NCBI GenBank assembly: GCA_044892505.1
Contig: CM097883.1
Location: 42,222,001 to 42,286,000, forward strand
Origin: Schmidtea nova
Taxonomy: Eukaryota
Length of the DNA: 64,000 bases
Direction: 5' to 3'
The notes under the pieces are model-generated. The model was given only the letters and a program-made list of their open reading frames with translations. It had not been told where the DNA came from and ran no database searches. Shown one piece after another: positions 31,439 through 56,382 of this stretch. Made by a program: the position numbers and the translations under genes. Within the stretch, counting starts at the first letter, position 1, and every line of letters starts with the position of its first letter.

Positions 31439-31753
31439 CTAAAAATGCTAAAGAATATCAACAAATTAATTTCTTATTTAGCTACTAGCAAAATTATATA
31501 ATTTTAAAATTTTAAAATTTTAAAATCTTGCATATCGAATGATTTAAACATTGTACAACACGTTTTGGAAAAAAAATAATTATATATATTACGATAATTT
31601 TATCTAAATTCATTAATTATAATAACAGAAATAAAATAATTTTTTTAAATGTTTTAATATTGTTGCGTTGTTATATTAATTATTTTAAATTTACTAATTT
31701 TCTTTGATTTGTTTATTTAAACTATTTCATTTGCATTGTTTTTAATAAATGTT

Positions 31754-32179
31754 ATGAAGTTACAAATTGTTTGTGTAATTCTTTTTCTTAGCGTTGTCAA
31801 TTGCAATCCTATAACAAAGGTATCGGATAATGAAGACAATTTGATTTACGACTCTAACCAATCTCATTCACAGTCAAATCATGAACATTTTGTGGTCGAT
31901 TTCGGTCAATTAATCACTTCGGATTCTAAATTGATGAAAGAACTGTCGAATTTGTTAAATGAATTTGTAAAAACCCCATCAACTGAGTTGATTAATCAAA
32001 TCAAATTAGAATGGACAAATTTCAAAGCTAAATATAAGAAAATTTACAAAGATGTCAAAGAAGAATCTCATCGATTTTTGATTTTCTTAAAAAGTTATCT
32101 CAAAATAAAGCAACACAATTTGAAATTCGATGCGGGAACAGTTAAATTCAATATGTCAACTAATCATTTATCTGATCTA
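31754..32179 (+). CDS. Cathepsin L-like cysteine protease, first exon (signal peptide plus I29 inhibitor prodomain)
   Basis: MKLQIVCVILFLSVVNC signal peptide; WTNFKAKYKKIY..VKEESHRFLIF...IKQHN...FNMSTNHLSDL (ERFNIN/GNFD-like); GTGAGT donor at 32180; no catalytic exon found in the window. Confidence 0.85.
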
Positions 32180-32899
32180 GTGAGTGTTATTTCATTTATA
32201 TGAATCATGTTTAGGTAATTAGTTTTCTTTTGGTGGACATGATTTTCTTTGCTAATTTTTCTTTTTATATTATATTTCACTATTTCTACTTTTTCATGAT
32301 AAATAAAAGGTATCACTATCATATTTTATTATAAATAATGTTTAATAATATTAATGATCAATAATTAATTATTTAAACACTTTTTCAAAAACAATACGAT
32401 GGAACCGCTATTAATAAGCATAATTCGTCCCATAATCTTCCTCGTAACGTAGATTACTCGTTAATCGAGATTCCACTGTACATATAGTTTGTTCATATAT
32501 ACGAGATTGAATGTCTGTCACACAAAGCGCGCCCAAAATCGAAATTCTAGGACCACAGAAATCTGCATTGTCAATATTAGTTTAATACATAAAATAATAC
32601 AAAGCTTCAGTAGTATCTGCTTATTATCAAATTCGAAACATCCTGTTAGGAACACTTTCAAATATTTATTCAAACGAATTAAAGAATCTAAATTCTTTCA
32701 ATAACCGAAATCAGTTTTCACTGTTTCAATTTTTATTTTCATTAATATTTAGAATTGATATAACAGTTAATTGACTTCCACAAACTAGATTGTTAGTTTC
32801 CCATTTTTATTATGTTAGAATATGCGGTTTTATCTCTTATAGTGAAACAACTGTTTTGTTGAATCACGAGATCTCATTGTTTGTTGATAAAGATTAGCT

Positions 32900-34100
32900 G
32901 GTATAAGTATACAATAGGGGGGCCACTTTTTTTTAATTAAATTAAATAAATTTTAAATTATAATAAATTATTAATTTAATAAAAAGAGTATAATAAAATA
33001 CTTATATATAGGGAAGACTATTAAGTCAGTTTTTATTTAAGTTAACGTTACACAACACTTAAATCATATCGTTGTCTTATTTGATCAATCAATATATCAA
33101 ACGCTCGCTCATTTTGACAAAACCTTCTTCTCCACATGAATTCGTCGAGGTACGAAGGAATGAAGCTACATCGTGTCCCAAACATATACTTAAATTTTCG
33201 TTTACACAACGCCCACGAACCTTCTATTCCGTTGGTGTTAACGCCGGTAACGGGATCAATGAAGTGTTCCGAGTGATTCACCCACTGGTGTACATACGGT
33301 CCCAATTTAGCTAAAGGTGTAGGGGCATTTGGGTCTCGTCTGGGACCACCAGTATAAGTAGAGAATTCATCAGTCCAAATAGTCGTTCCCGGGAGTACAA
33401 CACGCGAAAAAATTGGAAATATTTCTTGTTGAGTCCTATTATAAACGAACTCGAAGTGTACATTCTTCGTAGTACAGTCTATAATTCCGAAAACCCAACC
33501 ACTGCGTGCATTCCCTCTCGGTTCTCCGCGATTATGCATCAAATTCATAAATTTCGATTCATCCGCTTGCACGATATGATCAACTCCACCAAATAGTAAA
33601 GGCTGAGAAACCAACTTCCAACTGGCAATATCTCTAAAATACTGGTACCATTGAATGATAGTTTTTTTTGAAATATTAGTAAAAAGCTGAACTTGTTTAA
33701 CAGAGCATTCCGCGCCCCAAAAATACATTAGTAGGAAAAGATCACGAATATGTAATTTGGAATTACAAAAAAAACTCCCGGTTGTAATTGTTTGTTTGTT
33801 GCGATGCGGATTTACGTGTGACCGACTACGACAAACAAATATATATTCATTTACTACTTTTGAATCTTTTACAAGTTTCATAATGCGTCCGCAGTTTGAG
33901 CAGGTGGGATCGGCTCGTAGCAAACCTACTCTTTGGAAATGTCTTATTAAAGACAGTGTGTCACGCGAAAGTTCATATATTTGTTGTAAATTCATGGCTT
34001 ATGATATATTTTAAAATTTAATTGATTATATTTATATTTATATATTTAAATTTATTTAATTTAATTAAAAAAAGTGGCCCCCCTATTGTATACTTATACC
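32900..34100 (-). mobile_element. Merlin (IS1595/ISXO2-like) DNA transposon, apparently intact
   Basis: ~50-bp TIRs starting GGTATAAGTATACAATAGGGGGGCCACTTTT (one indel); perfect 8-bp TSD GATTAGCT (32892-32899, 34101-34108); single uninterrupted ORF. Confidence 0.96.
33048..33995 (-). CDS. Merlin/ISXO2-like DDE transposase, 315 aa
   Basis: CSNC zinc ribbon, HTH, VQADES (D), IWTDEFSTY (D), VNHSEHF.DP.TGVNTNGIEGSW (E), YLDEFMWRR. Confidence 0.95.
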   Translation of the reverse strand: MNLQQIYELSRDTLSLIRHFQRVGLLRADPTCSNCGRIMKLVKDSKVVNEYIFVCRSRSHVNPHRNKQTITTGSFFCNSKLHIRDLFLLMYFWGAECSVKQVQLFTNISKKTIIQWYQYFRDIASWKLVSQPLLFGGVDHIVQADESKFMNLMHNRGEPRGNARSGWVFGIIDCTTKNVHFEFVYNRTQQEIFPIFSRVVLPGTTIWTDEFSTYTGGPRRDPNAPTPLAKLGPYVHQWVNHSEHFIDPVTGVNTNGIEGSWALCKRKFKYMFGTRCSFIPSYLDEFMWRRRFCQNERAFDILIDQIRQRYDLSVV

Positions 34101-35365: not shown

Positions 35366-37590
35366 CTTCCCAAAAAACTCCGGTTTTCAAAATCGCATGC
35401 GACAGGCAACGAGGGAAGTAGAACTTGAAAAACAACGAGGCAACATTATAAAGTTCTTGATATCCAAGAATGATTCATCGGCACCTTCAGAACCACACAC
35501 GTCACCTGACAAGATCACTCAGAATATTTTAAAAGATATTTCTGAATCTACAATTCCGATATCTGAAATCAACCTAAAGGATGTATCTGAGGCACCTGAA
35601 AAAGATGAAATTGCATTAACAACAGAAGATTCTGTTAATTCAGAAAATGCATCAGCATCATCACCAGATTCTCTAAACTCTGATGATTTCCACATAATCG
35701 ACACATTTGATAATACAGCTAATATTCCATCTGTACTTTCTTGTAACGACATCGGCTATTTAGAGTTTGACAAGATATCACAACGTTTGATAATTTCCCA
35801 ACGACTCAAAGACGAATTGGTAGAGCGTGGATCATCTGCATTTCAAAAGAAAAATGGTCCATTTGAATTTCGCGATGGACGTTCAATGCATTCATCTTGG
35901 TTCACCCGCCGGCTGGCTAATGGAGATGAGATAAATCGAACATGGTTGCTCTTTTCCCCATTAAAAGTTGAGCATATTGCTTCTGTTGCCTATTATTTTC
36001 AAAGTCACTTAACAATCAGCGCTCTGGACTTACGTTGCCAGAAGGTTTCAACAAATGGAGAAAGCCAGAAAAAATGTCTGAACATGAAAATAGTCCAAAC
36101 CATGGCGCTTTATTTACTGCCTGGAAAGAAGCGGAGTGACGGATTATGTCGGGTAAGGGAATCGATGCAGAATTGCAAGCCCAAATACAAAATGAAAAAC
36201 AAAAATGGCGAGATGTTCTGAAACGCTTACTTAGTTGAGTAAATTTTTAGCATTTAAATTTGGCATTGCGAGGCCATGCAGAGAGTTCTAACGTTGGAAA
36301 TTTTCTTGCTACTCTGAAACTTTTAGCTGAGTATGATCCTTTACTTTCTAACCACCTTGATCATGCCAGACAAAATCCGGGATCTGTATCATGCTTGTCA
36401 CCACAAACCCAAAATGAATTTATTGGCTTACTAGCGTCGAAAGTAAGAAATAAATTACTAAATGACATCAAGAGAAACAAATACTATGCTATTTTGTTTG
36501 ACAGCACTACAGATCAAGCTCACCGCGAACAGTTATCACGCGTGATAAGGTATGTCGATGTTGATTTTTCAAACAAAACTGTGACTATTAAGGAATCATT
36601 TCTGAGCTTTATTGAGCTACATGCTAAAGATGCAGCCACTCTTGAACATGTTATTGTTGACACCCTTGAAGCCGATAATTTACGTCTGGATGACTGCAGG
36701 TCGCAATGTTATGACAATGCTGCTGTAATGAGTGGGCATATATCTGGGCTTCAACAAAGGATTTGCAATAGAAATCCTCGCGCAATATTTGTGAATTGCA
36801 ACAATCATAGCCATAACTTGGCAGGTATGCACTCAGCTAAGCAGGATACTGTTGCTGTTACATTTTTGGTACAATCGAGAGCATTTACCTTTATTTCTCA
36901 TGTTCCACACTTCGATGGAACGAGCTTAAAAATGTAATCAGCAACACTGTTAAGCGAGAATGTGAGACCAGATGGAGTGCTAGAGCAGATGCGGTCAAGG
37001 CTGTGCATAATGAAGTAAACGAAATTGTAGGGTTACTCGAAAAATTGTCAGATGATAACAGCCAGACTCAGGACACAAGGGCTGATGCCGAAAGATTGCT
37101 AATTTGGCATCAAATTCTCGGTAAAATTGACCGAGTCCAAAAACGTTTAAAGGACCCAACAGTAAACTTCGGGGAAGCAGCATCAGATCTGCAATCTTTG
37201 GAACTTCATCTCAATGAAGTGAGATCAGAATTATACGAAGAAGCCATTCAGAAAGCAAAGGATATGTGCAGTAAATGGGGAATTGCAGTAGAAAGCCGAG
37301 TCAGGCGAAGAAGACGAATGGCGGGAGAAATGGCACGAGATGCGGGACTTTCTTCTGAAGAAAATATTAACAGAATAATGAAAAGTATTATTGATCGCTT
37401 AAAGGCAAAATTTCAAAAAATTCAAACGACTTCAAGACTTTAATTTCAAATTTGGCTTTCTGCTTAATATTAATAATTTATTAAGCATGAAAAATGTCGA
37501 TTTGGAAGAAAAATGTTTGAATTTAGCAAGCTTTTATGACAGCGACGTAAATGGGACGGAGTTGTTCAACGAAATTTGCGATACTAAAAT
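35366..37590 (+). pseudogene. hAT transposase (ZMYM1/TTF-zinc-finger type), decayed
   Basis: RTWLLFSP, LALRGH, FDSTTDQAHREQLS, QCYDNAAVMSG, CNNHSHNL, TRWSAR, RRMAGEMARD, DVNGTELFNEI across frames. Confidence 0.9.
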
Positions 37591-38060: not shown

Positions 38061-38396
38061 TTAAAAATAAATTTTTCTGGCTTTTACTGCCGCAAATGTA
38101 TCAATGACATCATCAAAATTAATACAATCAAGAGTGTCGCGTTCCTCGCTTAAGAGTGCAAGACTATCCAAACGTTCTTGACCTATAGATGCCCGTAGAT
38201 AGGATAGTATTAATTTCAATTTTCTGAAAAAGCGCTCACAGCTTGCAATTGATACCGCAATCGTTAATAAAATTTGCAGCGCAATTCTTAAACTCGGAAA
38301 GACATCCTCACCATACAATACTATAAACTTCAACAAATCAACTGGCGATGATAGCGAAGTATCACATCTTTGCTGGTGTGTTGGTTTGATGGACAA
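38061..38396 (-). pseudogene. hAT C-terminal dimerisation domain, inverted relative to the 35.4-37.6 kb body
   Basis: VFPSLRIALQILLTIAVSIASCERFFRKLKLILSYLRASIGQERLDSLALLS...FAAVKARK. Confidence 0.9.
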
Positions 38397-38758
38397 CTGA
38401 GATCATTAAGATTTTATATGTTAGGGTGATCTCGCCAACATAAAAACATTCCCCCGCTGACACCCATGATGTATCCCTAACTACTCATCATGTTGGTGCT
38501 GTGTCAACGTTGTGAAATGACAAGGCAGGTGAGCAACCTTGCGGCTACTATTCCCTTGTTTATTCACGGGTCCACCACTACCGATAGAAGGTGTCTGTGG
38601 ATTTCTTTCGGTCCCACTTATGCTCTTTCCTTTTGCTCTAGGGTAATTTAATTTCAGCGCCTCTGCAGTTTTAGATGAATCCGGGTTTTTAGTTACATTC
38701 AATTCTCAGACATTCCACAAACAAACAAGACAAGACAAATCATTCGTTTACAATACAT

Positions 38759-39358
38759 TTATTTATAGTTTAATAACACTGACGGTCTAATCACATTTAG
38801 GAGTTCTTGTTCAGATAGACCACTGAGCAAGTCTACTTCTATTCCTAGGCGATCCGCATACGCACGTCGCTCTCTCCGCTTTTTCGATCCGAGGCGATTC
38901 CTTCTCTTCGTTCGTTTTGAGCCTGCTGGAGTTCTCGTTGTCGACTCGATCGTCGTGATTGCGACTGCATCTGTTTCCGTTTGGGTACTCGTAGTTACCG
39001 ATATCGAGTCCACCCATCGGTTAAAAGTGCTTGCCCGGATCACTGGGTGCAATTGCTCGGTAATAAATTCCTGGGTCGATACCCTCAAGTAGTTCGAGAG
39101 CTCCATCTTTAGTGCTGCTACCTCTCTAGCTTGTTCGTCGACTGTTCGTTCCGCCCGGTATCTGGCTTGTAGTATGGCCTTAACCCGCTCTGGGTTAAAC
39201 CACGTGGTTTTAATCCGCTGATGCTCGTCATTTAACTGTCTTAAACGATTCTCCAAAACTCGTGAACGCGCCTTATGTTCTCGCGCCTTTTGCTTGTACT
39301 CTCTATCTTTGGTTTCGTTCATGTCTGTAAATATAACCTCAATTATGGTATATGTCAT
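38759..39358 (-). CDS. Orphan protein, 199 aa, N-terminal coiled coil and basic C-terminal patch
   Basis: Uninterrupted, GC-richer ORF; stop overlaps AATAAA (38758-38763); RSRVLENRLRQLNDE heptads; KRTKRRNRLGSKKRRERR NLS-like stretch. Confidence 0.6.
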   Translation of the reverse strand: MTYTIIEVIFTDMNETKDREYKQKAREHKARSRVLENRLRQLNDEHQRIKTTWFNPERVKAILQARYRAERTVDEQAREVAALKMELSNYLRVSTQEFITEQLHPVIRASTFNRWVDSISVTTSTQTETDAVAITTIESTTRTPAGSKRTKRRNRLGSKKRRERRAYADRLGIEVDLLSGLSEQELLNVIRPSVLLNYK

Positions 39359-39510
39359 TTGTCCGGTCTTTCAGTCATCCTTTCGTTATTAAACAACTAT
39401 ACCACATCATCATGATATTCTCATACGCTCGAAACCAAAACAAGACCATTCTCACACAAATGCATTTATTTTTATATTTACAACAAACATTCTTTCTCGG
39501 GCTGTGTCAA

Positions 39511-40146
39511 TCAACTGAATGCTCGCAATTCCTGGTCGGCAGGATTCTCGTCGCGACGAATTCCGCTTTCCAAATACATCTCTGGAGCTGGGTTCCAACT
39601 CAACTTATCTCTGTAGGTAAACACCTCCCAGAGGCGAAGCTCCTTGGGCTCGGGGTGTTGATCTAATGACACGCTTCCTGGCGCGTTGGAGTAGGCGAAG
39701 ACTTCCTCAGTGTAGCGACACCGAGGCCTGTCTAGCAGCGTGTATCCTAGTCGATATAGAGCCCTTCCCGTCAACATTCCAGTGCTCAATAACCAACGGG
39801 GTCGTTTCTGCTCATCGAGGAATTGGTAGAACCATCCGTCGGTTCTTGGGTCGGCAGGGGCTAAGGTGGACGTCCAATCGGTGTCTCCTTCCCATCGCAG
39901 TTGTATAGTGAAGGCGCAGGCCGGAATATCGGCGGCTGCACTCATATGATTTCTTATCCACCGGCGTAAGTGTCGGCGTGCAATTTCGCTAATTCGGCGG
40001 GGGGCTTCCGTTTCTCCCTCGATGGTGGGGTTCCTCTTTGGCCGGATGACGGAGCGGGTACGCCGTCTTTTCCGGATGACATAATCCTCCACTTTCATAT
40101 GTCGCGAGTCGATCAGATCCTTTTGATATTTCTCGATTTTTATCAT
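39511..40146 (-). CDS. Orphan protein, 211 aa
   Basis: Uninterrupted ORF with GTATAAATA ~55 nt upstream (40201-40209) and AATAAA at 39465-39470; basic N-terminus RKRRRTR, Trp-rich core. Confidence 0.6.
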   Translation of the reverse strand: MIKIEKYQKDLIDSRHMKVEDYVIRKRRRTRSVIRPKRNPTIEGETEAPRRISEIARRHLRRWIRNHMSAAADIPACAFTIQLRWEGDTDWTSTLAPADPRTDGWFYQFLDEQKRPRWLLSTGMLTGRALYRLGYTLLDRPRCRYTEEVFAYSNAPGSVSLDQHPEPKELRLWEVFTYRDKLSWNPAPEMYLESGIRRDENPADQELRAFS

Positions 40147-41126
40147 GTGACTGAATACAAGAGCTAGGTTAATGTGATAGATTTGTCGGGTGAGTGTAAT
40201 TATTTATACCCGTCGACCTACTCGACTTAATGGTAAAACGCTGTAGGCCTTGGTAGATCGGTTTTCATTTTTACTAAACCAGAGACGGTAATGTAGTATG
40301 GGTCGTGCATTATGGTTTAGTGTAGTAGACTATTCTACTCTGTATTTTTATTCAACTAGTTAACCACGCTCAATTGATTTTGGTCGTTACTGGATTAGAT
40401 TTATTTTTGTTGTTCATCAACTATGTACACACGACAATTTCTCACTAGGAGACGCTATTACCAACTACCAAATTTACATTTGTTTTCCATTCATCACACC
40501 CATTCTCTCAGTCATGCTCTATGCCTGGACAACACGATTGCCTATTCATTTTAGTTTTACATCAGCCACACTCAGTCACTCGATATTTTTATTTGAAGAA
40601 CATCCTCGTTAACTAACGATGGTCATGTCATAAGGGGAATATCGACAATCCCTTACTCAAGTTGGGTTGATGCTTCTGGTATGATCGTTAACTAATTGGT
40701 GGGGTTGACCTTTTGTGCCCTTCGAGGGTCGCATGTAGGTGTTGGAATACCTGGTTGATTTATATCTCGGACCCAAACACTTTGGTCTCTGAACTCACAT
40801 GACTTATGTATGGTGTATTTCTACCCTCGTCAGCGCTCAATTTATCCGACTTGATGTTGTTTATCGTGATACATATCCTCTATACAAGGCTATCGCTACT
40901 TTAATCGACTTTACGAACGCTGGATACCCTATTGATCTATTAACAAGCCTGTTACGTGTACTCATTTACTCGATGTCGTCGTGACAGATAATGCATCCTT
41001 CGATTACTTTTACTCATACTGATGTTACGAGGGTATCGGACATCCTATGTGCATTTGTCCCCCTTCCGTTTACTAAATTTTTAGGAAACCTATGGTCCCG
41101 CCGCATCAGCACCTCACATGAAAATG

Positions 41127-41750
41127 TGTTGCGCTGAGAGGCCCAAGAATCCGTCAGGCTGTCAGGCCTCCGGAAAACCTTATTGATTTTAAGATAGTTA
41201 TAATTATGAGGGTTTAAAGTAACAATATAACACACAACAATTACCTTTTATTTTTCCTTCAAGTTGGATTTACAATGTTCTCAGTGCTCAACTGCAAGTT
41301 ACACTTGGTAAAATAACATTGACAAATACTGATTTGACTTCAGTATTTATACTCAACCGGTGTTGTTGGTTAGCCAATCAGCATCGAGTATGTGTGTATG
41401 TTTGCTTCATTTTTTCATGTTGTCGGCTTTTTGCTGCCTAACTTAACTCACTGATTTATTTGTTTAATCATGCGGTAAGTTTTTCTTTGTCATCAATTTA
41501 TTTTATTTTATTTTTGTTTTAGATCTTCGGTGACATCCGCCCACGCGCTGTCATATTCAGATTTTATCTGCTTCGCATGAGTGAGTTTTTGAGTTTTATT
41601 TTTGTTTTGATTAATACCTTATTTCTTTTAGATGTTGCCGCTTATTTGCTACTTTTTTAGCTGGTAATTTGTTTTATTGTTATTTTGTGTAGCTTTATTT
41701 TATTGATTGCATATTATTTTCAGATGCTGCTCGATTTGGCTGGCCCAACA
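41127..41750 (-). mobile_element. LTR-like family B copy 1 (624 bp, TGTTG...CAACA)
   Basis: Starts TGTTGGGCCAGCCAA at 41750 and ends GCGCAACA at 41127. CCAAT box 41374-41378, GTATAAATA 41344-41352, AATAAA. Sequence after the end resembles that after copy 2. Confidence 0.8.
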
Positions 41751-42726
41751 TCTTGTTATTGTGGGGACAATTGGGGTGCCTGCTTATGTAATGTAGGGTT
41801 TACAAAGATATTAATGAAATTAAACAAGTTTCAAACAAATTTATATCAACAATTATATTATTATAAAAATTGTATTTAGAGAAAATTAACAATCCAAAAC
41901 CACGAAAAGTTACTTTAATATTGGTGAGATATTTCTTTTGACTCTTTGAATACTCTTTTAAGATCAGCTCTCCGACAATTAATTTCCGACAATTATTAGT
42001 TTTGTAATTTTTTTTAAAAAAATCAATTTTCTTATTTTGTATATTTTACTATAGTTTCATTCTATAGTAATTTAAATATTTAAATTCTAAATTTAAATAT
42101 TTTAACCATATTATAAGTAAATTATAATAATTAAAATACTTAAAATAATTAAAATACACCAAAGGGGGGTACAATGCCTTTACAATAGTAGTAACAGATA
42201 ATAATAAAGATTAACAACTCATTACAATATATATATATATATATATTCAATGAAAACTGAAAACTGTAAAAATAATTTAACAAGATATGACCTAACTATA
42301 ACAAGAAAACTCATTTTATTTATAGAGCTCGTTGCAAAAAATGAAATTTTTGTTGAGAGCGCTCAGACTCGAGTTTAGAAATAATTTTCAGCTGATTATG
42401 TCCCAAATAAATTTTTTCAGCTCAAGCTTTCTCTATTTTATTTTAGACAGAAATGCTCGAGCTAGCTTAATAGGGTAATTTGAGCTGTCAGCTCTAGTTA
42501 TATTTTTGTGCCTTCGCAAAAGTTTTGAAATATTATGTTTAAAAATGCGCAATAAATAGAAATACATAAAATTCGTTACGAATTCGAACTATTAAACGAA
42601 TCATAACATTTTTCGGAACGACTACTAAAATGGTACAATGTAATAAATTCCGGGATTTTATTTGTAAAATACTGATTAGCCTCTAGAAGGCGTTAATTGT
42701 TGGTCGTTCATCTTTTCCGGTGCTTA

Positions 42727-46141: not shown

Positions 46142-48752
46142 CAAGATTTATTTACATAATTTGGTACCAAAATAGATATTTTATGCGTATGTAAATTTAA
46201 ACTTGGAAGTTTTGTTTCATGTTTTTCATTTTTATATCTTAAATTTATGTTATTTATCTATGGAGTTATTACGAAAATTTAAATGCCGGTATAGTTTTAG
46301 TATCTCTACCGCCGCAACATTCACTATTTAATAACTCATGGGATAAAATTCGCTCTTCACTTGGTCTCAATTGCACTTCAACTTCAAATCTTGGTTGAAA
46401 TATTAGAGTGGTTATTTAATTTACTTTTTGTGTGATCGTGAATAGTTCTACTATATTCTACCGGGCGACCCCCATGTCTCTCGTACTCGAGTGCACTTCG
46501 AATAATACTTGACTTATCGCTCTACGATACTTAGGGGTGATTGGCATATCAAGTGGATTTTCTCGTTTCGGATTTTTAATAGACAACCCATTCATCAGCA
46601 ATATATAGTGCCTCCTCTGAAAATTTTGAGTGACCACTTCACAAAAATTCGATTAATTCTATACCTCGGGTTTACTCGTTCTATTGGACAGAATCGTGAC
46701 AAAATTGTCCAAATCTCTCGCCAGAAAATTTACAGCAAATTCGTGTGGTTGTTTTTTTTATGCAGGCGCTCTATGGATTAGGTTCGAAAGATTTTCTATC
46801 GCTTCGACTGATTTAGGCATAAGTTAGAATATGCTTTACCCTTGGTTTTCTAAAAAGTGGGTATACATTGAGTCTACTACTGCGCCGATTTTACTGAACA
46901 TCGCCCAATATTTTCATCACCAGGAATCTACGGCACTCAGCTTCCGCCAAGCTACAAATTTTTCATTGCACACACATCCAAAAAATGCATGGATGATTGC
47001 TCAGATAGAGAATTATTTTTTTATCTGATTTTTCTTTTTCAATATATTAGTCGAATTGAATGAAATGAGGTGCACGGAGAATTGAGTGCAAATCGTTAAC
47101 TATTGCAAAATTCAAAAATTTACAAATAAAGAGCAAAATAATTAAAAAAAATTAAAAATCAAAGGTTTTACGGGCGCAAATAGGTATGGGTGGATGCCAA
47201 ATGATAAAATGGATTCAAATATAATGATATCACATCAATGGGCGTCCTCAGAAATAGATATTAAAAAAGTACAAACTTATTAAAAACTTAATTTACTAAT
47301 GGAAACCCTGAGTCGTCAACAAAATAATTAAATTACTTTAGGCGAATTTTTGAGATAATGAAAAACCCAAGCAGTGTGGAAAATCAAAAATTGAAAGAAA
47401 AAAATTATTATAAACAGATGATAATTTTGCTTGATTAAGACTTGGTACTAGTATAAAATGACATTGTTTGGCTAACCTGAGCGCTTCCTTATATAGTAAA
47501 ATCAGCGCTTAGGCAGCCAATCAGAATTCAGCTAATATTTTATTGGTCAAATGACCCGTTTTTATACATTATTTTATTTTATTTTATTATTTTCTCTATT
47601 AATTTCATTTATTTTCTCTATTAATTTCATTTATTTTCTCTAATTCTTTTTATTTCCTCATTTCTACTTAAATTTCACATCTTAATCACTTTTTTTCCCT
47701 CGATTTTTCATTTTATTTTTGTTTTAATTTTACTCTTTTGTTAACGATTATTTTCCAACTTTTTAATATTATTTTAATGTTTCTTGTTAACTTTTATCGT
47801 TTCCTAATTAATCATTTAATTCTCCTATTATTTGTTACTGTACTAACCCAACAAATGTTTCTACATAATTTTTTATAATTTGTAAAAACTGAAGCTTTTG
47901 GTTTAAAAGTTTATTTTTACTTTTCTTAAATTGTGTTAAATGTCCCTCATGAGTTTTATAAAATGTTAGGTAGGGGTCGGAACTTAGGATCTGACAAAAT
48001 GGGCATACATGGTATTTTTCCTGAAATTATGTTATCTCATAATATTTTTTTCCCATTACTTCGTGACATTTTGACGAAAAAACTTGGTTATTGCAACAGT
48101 TAAAGTATAAGATACGTTAAAGGTATTTTTAAATTAATTTTTTTATTTTCAAAATGACAAAACGTTAGTATTAACTTTAACAACAGATCTGCTTTATTAC
48201 TATCTTGATTTTAAAATAAACTATAGGTTAAAAATTTATTATTATAAAAAAATAATTTATTATTCAACAAATATATATTATTCTATTATCTAAATAATTA
48301 TTATTTTATGAATTAATATTTAACTGTTATATCAAATTCAAAATAAAATAATTTGTTAAAAAAGCAATCATGATTATTTTTTGGTTTCGCCTTTGATCTC
48401 TTTTTATTTAATAGCAATAATTTACATAATTATACAACTATAGATCAATATATTTTGTTGTTAGGTACCATTGTTGTTAGTGTATCTAACAGCAACATTT
48501 TTTAATCTATAGTCATATAATTTTTTATTTAAAATAAATTTACATTTAACAGTTGGGCATTAGATTTGCATTTTTGAGCATTCTATAGTTATAAATATTA
48601 ATTTATAGTTTAATGGTTTATTATAATTTACAGACTGTTTGTAACGATAATCTGTTATCCTTCGTTCTACACTTGGTTTACCTTTTGAAAACATATATTT
48701 GAAATGTATAAATTATGTTATCTTAACAAAATACAAAAACCTCACTTAGCAT

Positions 48753-49429
48753 TGTTGGGCCAACCAATTAGATTTAAAACGAATCTAAAACAAAATAAAT
48801 TATAAATTAAATTGAATGGATAAAGTACGAAGTACCAGCATTATCAGTAAATCTAAAACGAAAACATAAATAGGTAATCAGCAAAGAAAATGCTTACGAA
48901 TTAACAACTGTAAAAACTCCAATTAGGAACAAATCGACCAGCTGTTATGAGCATATCAGCTATATTACAAGTTGACCTAAATATGGTTAAGAATAAGAAA
49001 TCTAATAAAACACATAATAACCTGAGGTTAAGAAAACAAAACAGGATTATTGATAAAATAATCAGTAGATAAAACATAGAAATCTGTCAATTATGCGACG
49101 GTAGACAAAATTTGATTGGTTGGCGCAATCCTGAGAAACGGTATAAATAGAACAGCCAAATTCAGAAATGTTAATGCGTAAAAAGTCATTTGTTTGTCAT
49201 TTATACCTTGATGCTTAGTGTCAATTTTATCTCGATACAAATCATTGTATAATTTGCGAAACCTTTGGAATCGTTTAGAACAATAAAGGTATGGGTAATT
49301 GTTTCATTTTTTAATTTGATTTGGTTAAATCCTCCATATATTTTTCCCTAATGGTATGATCAAAATTGTTAAGAGCACGTCCCGACGGTCTCCCGACCCG
49401 ACGGGCGATAACTGGCCTCCCGACCGACA
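48753..49429 (+). mobile_element. LTR-like family B copy 2 (677 bp)
   Basis: TGTTGGGCCAACCAA start; ATTGG 49115-49119; GTATAAATA 49141-49149; AATAAAG|GT; CGTCCCGACGGTCTCCCGACCCGACGG; ends CCGACA. Confidence 0.8.
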
Positions 49430-50099
49430 CTCTTCGCAGTGTTAGGTGGTGCGGTGTACCAGCGTTAACCAAATGGAAGGGGAGAGGTTGGACATAGAGA
49501 AGGCAGAGATAGATTTCCTTTTGACAATAATAAGAACATGAGGCTTACCGATTTTTTTGATCAAGTTAAACTTCGCAAACCCAGCGCAGTAAAAATCTGA
49601 GACAGCTTTGGAAAGTGAATAAGCCAAGATAATATACAGATAGAGATCATACAATCACAAATATAACTAAGGTAACTCCCATACATTTATTTTCTTTGCG
49701 ACATGGTAGAGTGAAATAGTGCGTTAATGCCACCTAAGGATCTGTAGAAAAATTCAAAAATTTACAAATAAAGAGCAAAATAATTAAAAAAAATTAAAAA
49801 TCAAAGGTTTTACGGGCGCAAATAGGTATGGGTGGATGCCAAATGATAAAATGGATTCAAATATAATGATATCACATCAATGGGCGTCCTCAGAAATAGA
49901 TATTAAAAAAGTACAAACTTATTAAAAACTTAATTTACTAATGGAAACCCAGAGTCGTCAACAAAATAATTAAATTACTTTAGGCGAATTTTTGAGATAA
50001 TGAAAAACCCAAGCAGTGTGGGAAATCAAAGATTGAAAAAAAATAATTAAATTGCTTGGGATAATTCAATTGTATAAAATCCTCGAACTAAAGGAAAAT

Positions 50100-53000
50100 C
50101 TGGGAGATATTAAAACTCAATTTATGAATTTATCTATGATGGTCGATGAAAGTCGGCTGTCAAAATCTTATTTTTTTATTGGACGTGAGAAGTTAAATTC
50201 ATCTAATTAATTAATTATATTGAAGGAAATTACTATAAAAGCGGAAAGCAAACTCTAAAATTTTCCAGTTCGCAATCAAAGTCTTTAAAAATGATAAAGC
50301 TAGTTATTTAGATTGATCAGAGTAATTAGAGACTAGATGAGTAAAGTGTGATCAAACAACTTATCCAGAGGAACATATAGAAAGCGTACCAGAAAAAAAC
50401 GATTTCCCGATGAGCTACTTACTTTGAAATGTTGTTAAAATTTAAAGTGTTATAGTGGCAACGATTGCAGTGAAATTTAAATAAATTTATTGTATTTGGG
50501 TATTGTTGTATTTTGAAACAGAGAGCATATCGAGTCAGAGCTTTGATACTGACTTTCATAAAAAACTACCTGAAAACGTAAGTATTCTAAGCTATCCTAA
50601 CCAGGGCCGTGTCTGGGTATATGGCCGCCTGCGTGCTAGTATGCATGGCCGCCCTTTGAGATAACATCAAAATCAAAGAAAAAAATCAAATTTTCATTCT
50701 TAATTTTTTTATTATACTTATATATCTAATGTACATGTACATATTACCATTGAATATAAAACATTAATATGTTTGGCACATCTATAAATCTATGATATTA
50801 CAATCAAAAATTTACTCTACGCGATTTTTTAGAGGCAAATTCTTCAATCGCCCCTTCAATATTTAAGGAATCAGCAATTTCACTTTCAATTGCAATAATT
50901 GATATATTACTGAGACGTTCTTGAGTCATTGAAGTTCTCAGGTGGTTTTTGATTATTTTTAATTTTGAAAAACTTCGCTCTCCAGATGCAACAGATACTG
51001 GAACTGTCAGTAAAAGTTTTAAACTTGTGACGACATTTGGAAAAGAATTCTCCAAGTTGTATTTGTATTAAAACTTTATGAGTTCTTCGGGCTGCTTTCT
51101 GTCTTTTATGATAATTTTTAGAGAAATTAACTCTTGATATAATTCTACGCCACTAATATCACAAGATTCACCATCTTTAAATTTATTATGGAGATCGAAA
51201 CAACTTTTTTTTATTTCCTCATGTTCCATATCAATAAATTTGTATAGAAATCCAAAACATTGTTCGAAATTTGACAAAGTTTCAAAACGGGTGGTAAGAG
51301 ATGAAATATCTGTATCTAGTATTACATAGAAAAAATTAATTTGAAAATGTTCTTTTGGAGTAAATTGAATATCTTCATCTCCTTCATAGCTAAATTGTTT
51401 TCGGTGATGTCGGCGACGTACACTAATTTCAGCAGGAAAATCCGGTTCTGTTTCAAGTGCTTTACAAAGTTCATTAGAAATCTGCAAATAATTTTCGAAA
51501 CTTTCGTCATTTCTAATGCTTTTGAAAAATTTCAAAACTTCCTTAATTGATTCAGCACACGAACTGATATTCCAAGAAACTTTCTACATCATTTTGCTAA
51601 TAAAATCTACCTTTTCCAAGATTTCGTACCATATTATTATTGAAGAAATAAATTTATAAGATTTAGGTTTCATTGCCAAACATTCAGCTTCATGTCGAAC
51701 TGTTGGCATTGAAGATTCCTCAGCTATTTCTATAAGGCTGTCATAAATTTCACCTAATTCATTTCGCAATGGTCTAATTGCTTTAATTCTTGCTTCCCAT
51801 CGAGTTTCACTAACTTGTTTCAATGTTAAAGATTTTACATTTTTCTTTAAAACTTGCCATCTAAATGGTGATCCACTGTAAAAGTTGTATATTGCAGATA
51901 CATTACTGAAAAAATCCACCGTTGAAAACGAAACATTAGCTGCATCATTAATGGCCAAATTTAATGTATGCGCGTTGCATGGCATAAACAGAGCTCGTGG
52001 ATAATTTTCCAAAATTCGCTTTTGCAATCCTTTATGTTTTCCGGACATATTAGACCCATCATCGTATCCCTGGCCCCTCATATCGTTAATATTTAATTCA
52101 AGATAGTTTAACTTTTGAATTAAGAAGTCGTAAAAAGATTCTCCAGTACAATTTTCAGCTTGATAAAATCCAATGAAATTTTCTCTTACTTCAACTTCAT
52201 AATTTTTAATATCTACATACCTAATAATCATTGTAACTTGCTCGACATGTCCAGTGTCCGGTGTACAGTCCAAAATGACTGAAAAATATTTTGCCTCTTT
52301 TATTGATGTTAATATATATTTTTGAATTTGGGTTGCAAGGATAGTGATTATTTCATTTTGAAAGCGATTTCCCAGGTAATGTGGCATGTGGTTCTTTAAA
52401 GCGATTGGTTCTTGTACGCGTTTTATGTGGTCTGCCATTATATCATCAAATTTTCCTATCATTTCAATTGCTTTCAGAAAATTTCCATTATTTTTTTCGT
52501 ACAATTTGCTGGAAGAACCTCTAAAAGCTAAACACTGTCCTGCTAGAAATTGTACCACAGATATCATGCGCCTGACAATTTGACACCATCGCTTTTTCTC
52601 GGCGTCATAATACCGTTGCATATTCTTATCAATTGTAGTTTTTCTTTTTAAATTTAATTCCAATTTTTTCCAACAGGTGCAATTTTCGATGTGCAGCGAT
52701 GTTTTTTCGTGACGAGATAAGTTGTCAGATATGTGTTGCCAATCGTTGAAGCCTTCATTAACTAATTTTATTTCTTGTTTGCCAAATAATTTACAACAGA
52801 AGCAAAATGTGGCATCATTTTTTGGAGAATAGATTAACCACTCACGATTAAATTTTTCACCATTTGGCAGTTTTCTATAGAAATAAACCTTTGAAAATGA
52901 TCTTCCAAATTCATTTAGTGGATATGTAGATTGTATATTTTGAATAGGGCCTTTTTCAATTAAAATATCCAGCATTTTATTAATAAGTGTTCAAGGCCAG

Positions 53001-55784: not shown

Positions 55785-56382
55785 TGTTGGGCCAAGCCAA
55801 GTACAAATTAAGTAAAAAATAAAAACATAAATTAATAAATAATAGTAGAATTACTGGATACCAACAAAGAAAAAGCAATCGAAATCATTGAAGCCTAAAC
55901 AAATGATAATAACAAGCAGTGATGAATAATAAAATATACCAATCAAAAAATCACCTTAGCGAAACGAAACCGCTGAGTACAGCTAATCCGGGGGTGGCAT
56001 CACTTGAAAATAGTACAAATATGAAATAAATGAATAATATAAAATCGGATGAATAAACAGCAATGAAATAAATCAGCACATAACCGCACAATAGAATTCA
56101 GTTAAAAAATAAAACAAACTATTATGAGGGCGGTGAAAGCGTTCTGATTGGCCGGCCCAAACTGAAAACTACTATATAAACAGCAGCGATTTCAGTGTGA
56201 AAATCATAATATGTCATTTTACTGACTCAGAGTCAGTACCTGATAAATTGAAACTGTAATCACTTGGAGAATAAAGGTATGTGGTAATTTATTTTGGTGT
56301 CTGAATTGATTGTTTAAACCCTCATATGTTTTCGAAATCAAAATCGATAGGAATACGTCCCGACGGTCTCCGGACCCGACGG
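55785..56382 (+). mobile_element. LTR-like family B copy 3 (3'-truncated)
   Basis: TGTTGGGCCAAGCCAA start; ATTGG 56147-56151; TATATAAA 56173-56180; AATAAAG|GTATG; CGTCCCGACGGTCTCCGGACCCGACGG. Confidence 0.75.

Follow-up and report, generated by a model that had tools for sequence, protein, structure and literature searches.

Three short predicted introns are clustered within the first 280 nt of U3 in the LTRs of a giant Burro-like Gypsy element. They are antisense to the genomic RNA and lie upstream of the CCAAT and TATA boxes. On the sequence evidence presented here, this antisense intron cluster is a real feature whose function is unproven. A preliminary description had placed three GT-AG introns in each of two LTR-like copies of the window (the whole 64-kb stretch of DNA analyzed), and all six were found where it put them and at the sizes it gave (table 1). 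It had also taken the repeat for an LTR, which is borne out by a 4-bp TSD, the terminal sequences, and likeness to the LTRs of paired elements.

Table 1. Features of copy 1 and of the related LTR copies in the window
Feature	Position	Strand	Remarks
Copy 1, solo LTR	38371..41750	-	ends TGTTGGGCC...CACCAGCA; from Burro-like giant Gypsy element
TSD TCTT, left	38367..38370	.	4-bp TSDs also in three paired elements
TSD TCTT, right	41751..41754	.	seen in sequence
LTR-borne ORF2, 203 aa stop to stop	38759..39370	-	without Pfam match
LTR-borne ORF1, 230 aa stop to stop	39511..40203	-	without Pfam match
Sense AATAAA, then donor-like AAG|GTAATT	41239..41252	-	~100 nt after TATA; also copies 2 and 3
Putative sense-promoter TATA box TATAAATA	41344..41351	-	seen in sequence; function predicted
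CCAAT box CCAATCA	41374..41380	+	~25 nt upstream of TATA; families A-G; predicted bidirectional-promoter core
Predicted antisense exon 1	41380..41474	+	placed from donor 1
Predicted antisense intron 1, 48 nt, GCG|GTAAGT..TTTTAG	41475..41522	+	GT 38/39, AG 38/39 non-redundant copies
Predicted exon 2, 58 nt	41523..41580	+	GC-box-like CCGCCC 41537-41542, then CTGTCA
Predicted antisense intron 2, 51 nt, TGA|GTGAGT..TTTTAG	41581..41631	+	GT 39/39, AG 39/39
Predicted exon 3, 32 nt	41632..41663	+	32-34 nt across family
Predicted antisense intron 3, 60 nt, CTG|GTAATT..TTTCAG	41664..41723	+	GT 38/39, AG 39/39
Predicted exon 4 within LTR, 27 nt	41724..41750	+	transcript would continue into flank
Family G, fourth LTR-like start in window	47420..47853	-	TGTTGGG/CCAAT/TATA skeleton, T-rich back strand, no predicted introns
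Copy 2, 5' part of old LTR, diverged family B	48753..49751	+	
Copy 2 predicted antisense intron 3, 51 nt	48785..48835	-	GT 22/25, AG 22/24 family loci
Copy 2 predicted antisense intron 2, 45 nt	48853..48897	-	GT 17/27, AG 22/27 family loci
Copy 2 predicted antisense intron 1, 45 nt, weak donor CAG|GTTATT	48977..49021	-	GT 21/24, AG 20/24 family loci covering site
Copy 3, 5' part of decayed LTR, family C	55785..56382	+	middle intron alone passes rule
Copy 3 predicted middle intron, 60 nt	55954-55895	-	passes rule

The Parent Element

Copy 1 is a solo LTR of 3380 bp, and its parent is a ~29.5-kb Burro-like Gypsy element. A search of its own genome yielded 1346 candidates, 40 of which were scored; among these, six LTR pairs lie 26.1-26.2 kb apart. 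In nine tested pairs, the two LTRs share 99.5-100% identity across >2.1 kb. When three elements were read stretch by stretch, the LTR proved to be ~3.24-3.28 kb long, and 4-bp TSDs were present in 3/3 paired elements. Copy 1 is 78-91% alike to the LTRs of paired elements, in two blocks. Downstream of the 5' LTR there is a PBS-like stretch, and upstream of the 3' LTR a purine tract.

The long ORFs of these three elements, and the polyprotein, lie on the strand that reads from TGTTGGG to TATA, and the introns are therefore antisense to the element's genes, as had been claimed. The reverse orientation, in which the introns would sit in a sense leader, is ruled out by the ORF strand, the PBS-like site, and the purine tract.

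Pfam analysis of consecutive stretches of one element revealed Retrotrans_gag, Monjiviricetes_fusion (2.5e-68), RVP, RVT_1, RT_RNaseH, rve, and Ank: a Monjiviricetes-type fusion glycoprotein (env) is in frame ahead of protease, RT, RNase H, and integrase, with ankyrin repeats behind them. Pfam also placed TRAF/MATH and RING domains in ORFs separate from the giant polyprotein; BIR and BCL2, which like these would be apoptosis/ubiquitin cargo, had no match in the nine ORFs scanned. The Burro/GYPSM1 elements of planarians are Gypsy-like giants, in which each LTR measures several kb and the whole retrotransposon ~30 kb. Their single huge polyprotein runs from gag through an env (fusion glycoprotein) fused in frame ahead of protease to RT-RH-IN and ankyrin repeats, and they also carry a TRAF/MATH domain (PMC6431247). 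The present element is Burro-like in its paired multi-kb LTRs with a 20-25 kb internal region and a TSD, and in its giant gag-env-PR-RT-RH-IN-ankyrin polyprotein. It resembles Burro/GYPSM1, as described there, in size, multi-kb LTRs, polyprotein order including env, ankyrin, and TRAF/MATH, but the TRAF/MATH domain here has its own ORF downstream of the polyprotein. On the strength of this likeness, the host is probably a planarian. A Penelope-like or DIRS-like identity is ruled out by the direct LTR pairs and the Gypsy pol.

The LTR itself carries two ORFs, homologs of which occur at 25-41% identity in other LTR families and mark these as relatives. Each of the two (38759-40203, minus strand) has a TATA-like word before it and AATAAA after it. 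Sense accessory ORFs past the polyprotein were also observed in one element (L041, 4284-7997): they are 120 aa, 476 aa (TRAF-like), 396 aa (coiled-coil), and 176 aa long, the last with two hydrophobic stretches. Several have an AG shortly 5' of the ATG, and these ORFs could be expressed via cis- or spliced-leader trans-splicing. Microsatellites of the (TA)n/(TTA)n type adjoin many LTR edges (flanks of L005, L019, L028, L030, L107, L120, and L142), which suggests a target preference.

Elsewhere in the window we observed a cathepsin propeptide (I29) exon (31721-32200, plus strand), an ISXO2-like (IS1595) transposase (33048-33998, minus strand), and two DUF4371 transposase fragments (36251-36937, plus strand; 51584-52990, minus strand). 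Rfam gave no match in the 64 kb.

Intron Predictions and Chance Expectation

The predicted introns of copy 1 are 78-83% AT and 60-65% T, and its exons are 36-56% GC. The last acceptor, said to lie about 30 nt from the LTR edge, is 27 nt from it in copy 1 and 32 nt in copy 2. The last donor, given as GCTG|GTA, has that form in both copies but is not fixed across the family. A weak fourth intron candidate (AAG|GTGGTA..ACAG; L041 8031-8096, minus strand) was seen just inside the internal region, with fixed ends and an interior of variable length over 17 distinct 3' flanks.

To compare these predictions with chance, we used a strict rule, set after the introns were seen, which requires GT with at least 4/6 U1 matches, YAG after a pyrimidine tract, and a length of 40-70 nt. 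Copy 1 has three introns under this rule, a number that 0/1000 dinucleotide shuffles reach (3/1000 with a relaxed donor rule). Three introns occur in 1/382 tiles of the window and in 0/140 tiles of an element's internal region. Among the copies of family A, the family of copy 1, 63/70 have three introns by the strict rule. No intron was found on the opposite strand in any of 84 U3s, and none of 70 antisense tiles of the internal region has at least two under the strict rule. Copy 2 reaches three introns only with the relaxed rule (5/1000 shuffles); the strict rule leaves one (P-value = 0.19). Copy 3 is decayed and retains a single intact intron, which does not exceed chance expectation (P-value = 0.08 and 0.42).

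Host genes served as a control. Of 46 candidate introns in myosin genes, 27 were dropped (bit score <32 or AT <66%), and 14 of the 19 kept are 45-61 nt long; the retained donors include GTAAGT, GTGAGT, GTATTT, GTTATT, and GTACTT. The short-intron peak of planarians lies at 45-85 nt (PMC13594981). The U3 segments combine the features of short U2-type introns, namely GT..AG ends, a U1-like donor, a pyrimidine-rich 3' end, and a host-typical length, and the three GT-AG segments are likely to be true introns.

Conservation within Family A

Of 70 U3 regions collected for family A, 31 were dropped as redundant (at least 97.5% identity) and 39 were left. Pairwise identity among these is 0.987 in the 12 GT/AG columns, 0.875 in exons 2-4, 0.861 in exon 1, and 0.815 in the intron interiors. 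The predicted splice dinucleotides are each kept in 97-100% of copies, compared with means of 78% for the other GTs (21) and 77% for the other AGs (9), although 8/21 and 3/9 of these are also kept in at least 97%.

The preliminary description had proposed that splice sites be compared with other columns of a family alignment, and the outcome is selective conservation: a variant shared by at least two copies occurs in 0/12 GT/AG columns versus 139/350 others (Fisher p = 0.004, a value that overstates independence because the family-A copies are related and neither columns nor copies are independent). The wider splice signal has four shared variants; three fall at donor +3 (A/G) or acceptor -3 (C/T). 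The donor of intron 2 alternates between GTGAGT (35) and GTAAGT (4) and the acceptor of intron 3 between CAG (36) and TAG (3) in the 39 copies; the tolerated toggles are transitions, the commonest mutations anyway. Old solo copies decay, and the conservation is seen among young elements, whose LTR pairs are nearly identical. Such conservation in young, replicating lineages points to selection through the element's own success.

Related LTR Families

We regard the layout shared between families as stronger evidence than the conservation within family A. The U3s of different families are 55-63% alike, and shuffles reach 50-52%. Copies 2 and 3 are both old and incomplete LTRs, and their families carry homologs of LTR ORF1 at 25-40% identity; many loci of families B and C are fragmentary and lack the start of the LTR. 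In the decayed family B, splice dinucleotides are kept at 0.83 versus 0.68 for all others. In family D, whose U3 is 63% alike, three GT[AG]AG[TC] donors occupy matching places in 5/5 copies (270-282, 171-176, and 87-90 nt from the LTR edge); its third intron is ~70 nt and its last exon 16 nt long. Families E and F, each a single copy, have at most two introns. The layout that had been described for copies 1 and 2, with diverged exons and similar intron number, size, and position, is kept in families B and D, whose U3s are 55-63% alike; sizes shift in family D, and family G has no predicted introns.

The CCGCCC/CTGTCA-like motif of exon 2 is present in families A, D, and E, partly in C, and absent from B and F.

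Family G, which yielded 536 candidates, shares the skeleton of the other LTRs. Of its 25 loci (L165-L189), 4 were not parsed, and no intron is predicted in any of the 21 parsed copies. What appeared to be a family G LTR pair is instead a segmental duplication. The number of AGs per 321 nt is 1.7 in this family versus 8.5-10.4 in the intron-bearing ones, as though splice signals were missing or avoided there. Its U3 back strand is 57% T, T-richer than those of intron-bearing families, and 6% G; T-richness alone therefore does not make the intron pattern, and the same skeleton without introns indicates that introns are not required by every relative. GTRAG occurs 0.0 times per U3 in family G, 1.9 times in family A, and 3.0 times in family D. 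The tie of this family to Burro consists of the shared skeleton and weak LTR-ORF2 matches (E-value 2e-4 and 3e-6), and the search found no complete element; it is a probable sister family of the intron-bearing LTRs and would be a natural negative control.

Promoter Region and U3 Layout

The intron-bearing end of the LTR is labeled U3 here from the position of the putative TATA box. From TATA to CCAAT, 24/34 columns are invariant in 39 copies. The strict promoter pattern CCAAT-TATA-AATAAAAGGTA has 358 matches genome-wide and none in the reversed control; on this prediction, hundreds of LTR copies could launch spliced transcripts into host DNA.

The AAG|GTA site directly behind the conserved sense AATAAA could be a major splice donor with a second role in guarding the 5' poly(A) site. 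These sense signals occur in reverse order in family G (GTAAGT, then AATAAA). A GC-rich, hairpin-like block was observed downstream of the sense donor (41064-41186, minus strand; 49359-49450; 56337-56382), and the block common to copies 2 and 3 is 87% alike over 46 nt.

Antisense-strand poly(A) hexamers are absent from 6/7 U3s, and the sense strand has 3-9; the lack of antisense hexamers partly follows from T-richness. In copy 1, nine A[AT]TAAA hexamers were counted on the sense U3 strand (41344-41750, minus strand), through which the genomic RNA must read at the 3' LTR.

Properties of the Predicted Product

The longest ORF over the four exons has 20, 21, 44, or 47 codons in 64/70 family-A copies, and the 20-codon ORF reported for the spliced product of copy 1 is present. 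In 19/22 3' LTRs, the frame opened by the ATG next to the last acceptor is 14 codons long. Variation in the exons is flat across codon positions (5/5/6), and the reading frame is not kept, since exon 3 varies in length within the family. RNA folding of the exon-only product was no better than that of shuffles (z +0.11 and +0.77). In the 3' internal region, antisense open frames show no third-position excess, whereas the overlapping sense ORFs do (TRAF 13/7/48), and these frames are shadows of the sense genes. No downstream antisense gene under coding constraint was found. Variable ORFs, flat codon variation, the frame change in exon 3, and the absence of a fold suggest that the product would be non-coding and free in sequence, in line with the earlier proposal of a non-coding RNA. 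The U3 sequence itself is thus probably not the selected trait.

Intron-less genomic copies were searched for through the three junctions, with no match for any; none are expected in normal replication, and the result is therefore uninformative. Four sequencing runs of unspecified kind from one study, available as contigs, cover the introns and flanks of a 3' LTR region and of copy 1; no predicted intron matches any of the joints listed (for one comparison, 15 of 31 joints), which says nothing on expression. At the far LTR edge, no strong donor able to splice the whole element from host transcripts was found; a weak GTGTGT was seen by eye in one copy.

Possible Function of the Intron Cluster

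Judging from these sequence features, it is probable that an antisense RNA of U3 would be transcribed backward and spliced. In LTR replication the genomic RNA is made from one strand and antisense introns are never lost; the introns would survive retrotransposition because the genomic RNA comes from the other strand.

Our working hypothesis, held tentatively, is that the RNA is a non-coding divergent transcript and that its splicing, rather than its sequence, supports the activity of the sense promoter. The antisense RNA would start backward from the CCAAT/TATA promoter. Because its first 300 nt contain three U1 sites but lack a poly(A) hexamer, a divergent transcript that is normally abortive would become processive and spliced. 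In a last, speculative step, promoter-proximal splicing and the T-tracts together might hold the 5' LTR in an open, active state, from which the element would benefit directly. Splicing-dependent activation of a neighboring promoter is known from mammalian work, and our literature search for it found no such paper. In planarian stem cells, T-tracts are a mark of open promoters (PMC10558129). Promoter support fits the observations that the exons drift freely, that the cassette ends at the LTR edge, and that the RNA body at the 5' LTR would be arbitrary host DNA.

The spliced RNA could possibly act as an antisense regulator instead. Running from the 3' LTR into the accessory genes (the membrane-type, coiled-coil, and TRAF-like ORFs), it would damp the element via interference, dsRNA, or piRNA priming, and so contribute to latency. 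This is the self-regulation or silencing reading of the preliminary description, similar to HeT-A and BLV and plausible as such, and the same sequence evidence for splicing applies to it. In both elements checked, an antisense transcript would not meet a poly(A) hexamer until ~1.36 kb into the element, and from the 3' LTR it would therefore overlap the sense accessory genes by at least 1.3 kb. Precedents include the multi-intron antisense RNA of HeT-A under rasiRNA control (PMC2615633) and BLV AS1/AS2 (PMC10186651); in planarians, moreover, most transposon piRNAs are antisense, and RNAi of smedwi-2 raises the levels of BURRO1 and BURRO4 (PMC8532177). However, self-silencing would be a direct cost to the element, three introns are unnecessary for antisense pairing, the RNA would enter arbitrary host DNA at 5' and solo LTRs, and the internal region holds no comparable intron cluster in its antisense tiles under the strict rule. 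Self-regulation or a silencing trigger accounts for the free exon sequence no better than a cis effect of splicing does, and the present evidence does not separate promoter support from antisense self-restraint.

A stronger version of the promoter-support hypothesis, which we consider doubtful, is a U3 "splicing cassette", in which a divergent transcript with three introns and no fixed sequence would be under selection for its splicing alone and would activate the element's own promoter or shield it against nuclear PIWI silencing, while the intron-less sisters would use bare T-tracts. If true, this would be a viral-type promoter module working by backward splicing.

It is unlikely that splicing plays no part and that U3 is a DNA-level enhancer, with GC-richer factor-binding blocks between poly(dA:dT) spacers, in which GT[AG]AGT (sense ACT[CT]AC) is a repeated protein-binding site resembling a donor by chance. 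A T-rich back strand without introns does exist in family G, the GC-box-like motif of exon 2 is common to several families, T-tracts work at the DNA level in planarian promoters (PMC10558129), and the spliced form was not observed. This explanation nevertheless does not account for why every T-tract ends in a conserved YAG acceptor, why the donor-acceptor spacing of 45-72 nt recurs three times in diverged families, or why family B uses the weak host-type donors GTTATT and GTACTT; family G, moreover, is T-rich and yet lacks GTRAG.

The cluster is very unlikely to be a relic, or to serve the host, with 5' and solo LTRs acting as spliced antisense promoters for neighboring host sequence and kept by descent only. 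Solo LTRs are numerous, and the U3 of MLV starts antisense chimeric transcripts into host DNA (PMC10186651), but conservation runs along replicating lineages of young elements while old solo copies decay, splice-site columns vary less than others (0/12 vs 139/350), and host-level selection on single insertions cannot shape master lineages. Least probable of all, and largely refuted for family A by the variable exon ORFs, the short ORF from the last ATG, the lack of codon bias in the variation, and the internal antisense frames without third-position excess, is that the exons code for a short peptide or supply the 5' leader to a protein gene of HBZ or brtn type on the element's antisense strand, even though family A has an ATG before donor 1 and after acceptor 3 and antisense open frames of 160-205 aa occur in the 3' internal region.

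Comparison with Known Systems

Antisense units are not new among retroelements. Retand, a Ty3/Gypsy element, reportedly carries additional antisense ORFs. Like the U3 cluster, such Ty3/Gypsy units are antisense, some have introns, and they survive since the genomic RNA is the other strand; they are, however, protein genes between pol and the 3' LTR, whereas the introns described here lie within the LTR itself and the search for a coding partner was negative.

The RNA predicted here had been put forward as not described, which is too strong given the multi-intron antisense RNAs of HeT-A/TART and the spliced, non-coding antisense RNAs of BLV. BLV AS1 and AS2 are spliced, non-coding, nuclear antisense RNAs from the 3' LTR, and HTLV likewise has spliced LTR-driven antisense RNA (PMC10186651). 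The predicted RNA would resemble these in being LTR-driven, spliced, and antisense and, as in BLV, where the RNA is also nuclear, non-coding. But BLV and HTLV are deltaretroviruses, the BLV RNAs start in U5, hbz codes for a protein, and the available part of that account describes no U3 micro-intron cluster. Solo-LTR transcripts on the sense strand have been reported as well (PMC4558846).

A further parallel is with HeT-A and TART. The HeT-A antisense RNA is non-coding and multi-intron, comes from a promoter beside the sense promoter, and is under rasiRNA control (PMC2615633), and antisense transcripts with multiple introns are known from both TART and HeT-A (PMC1636488). A multi-intron, non-coding antisense RNA from a promoter adjoining the sense promoter is likewise what we predict here. 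HeT-A and TART, however, are non-LTR elements with variable, alternative, and partly cryptic introns, whereas the predicted RNA would have three fixed micro-introns in an LTR U3, kept across families.

The purpose of splicing in antisense retroelement RNAs has been called enigmatic or elusive for HeT-A, TART, and L1 (PMC2615633). Family G, the probable intron-less sister, would provide a natural control for why such RNAs are spliced, and, provided that the host is a planarian, RNAi and piRNA data are routine, which makes the splicing question directly testable.

For Burro/GYPSM1, the available text of PMC6431247 is silent on LTR anatomy and we found no description of antisense U3 introns. More generally, no fixed micro-intron cluster in a Gypsy U3 was found described in the literature searched; the primary Burro description, which that search did not cover, may bear on the LTR. 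Given HeT-A, TART, and BLV, novelty is limited to the fixed micro-intron cluster inside a Gypsy U3, with predicted splice sites that are fixed, lie inside the promoter region, and are kept across families whose LTR proteins are only 25-41% identical.
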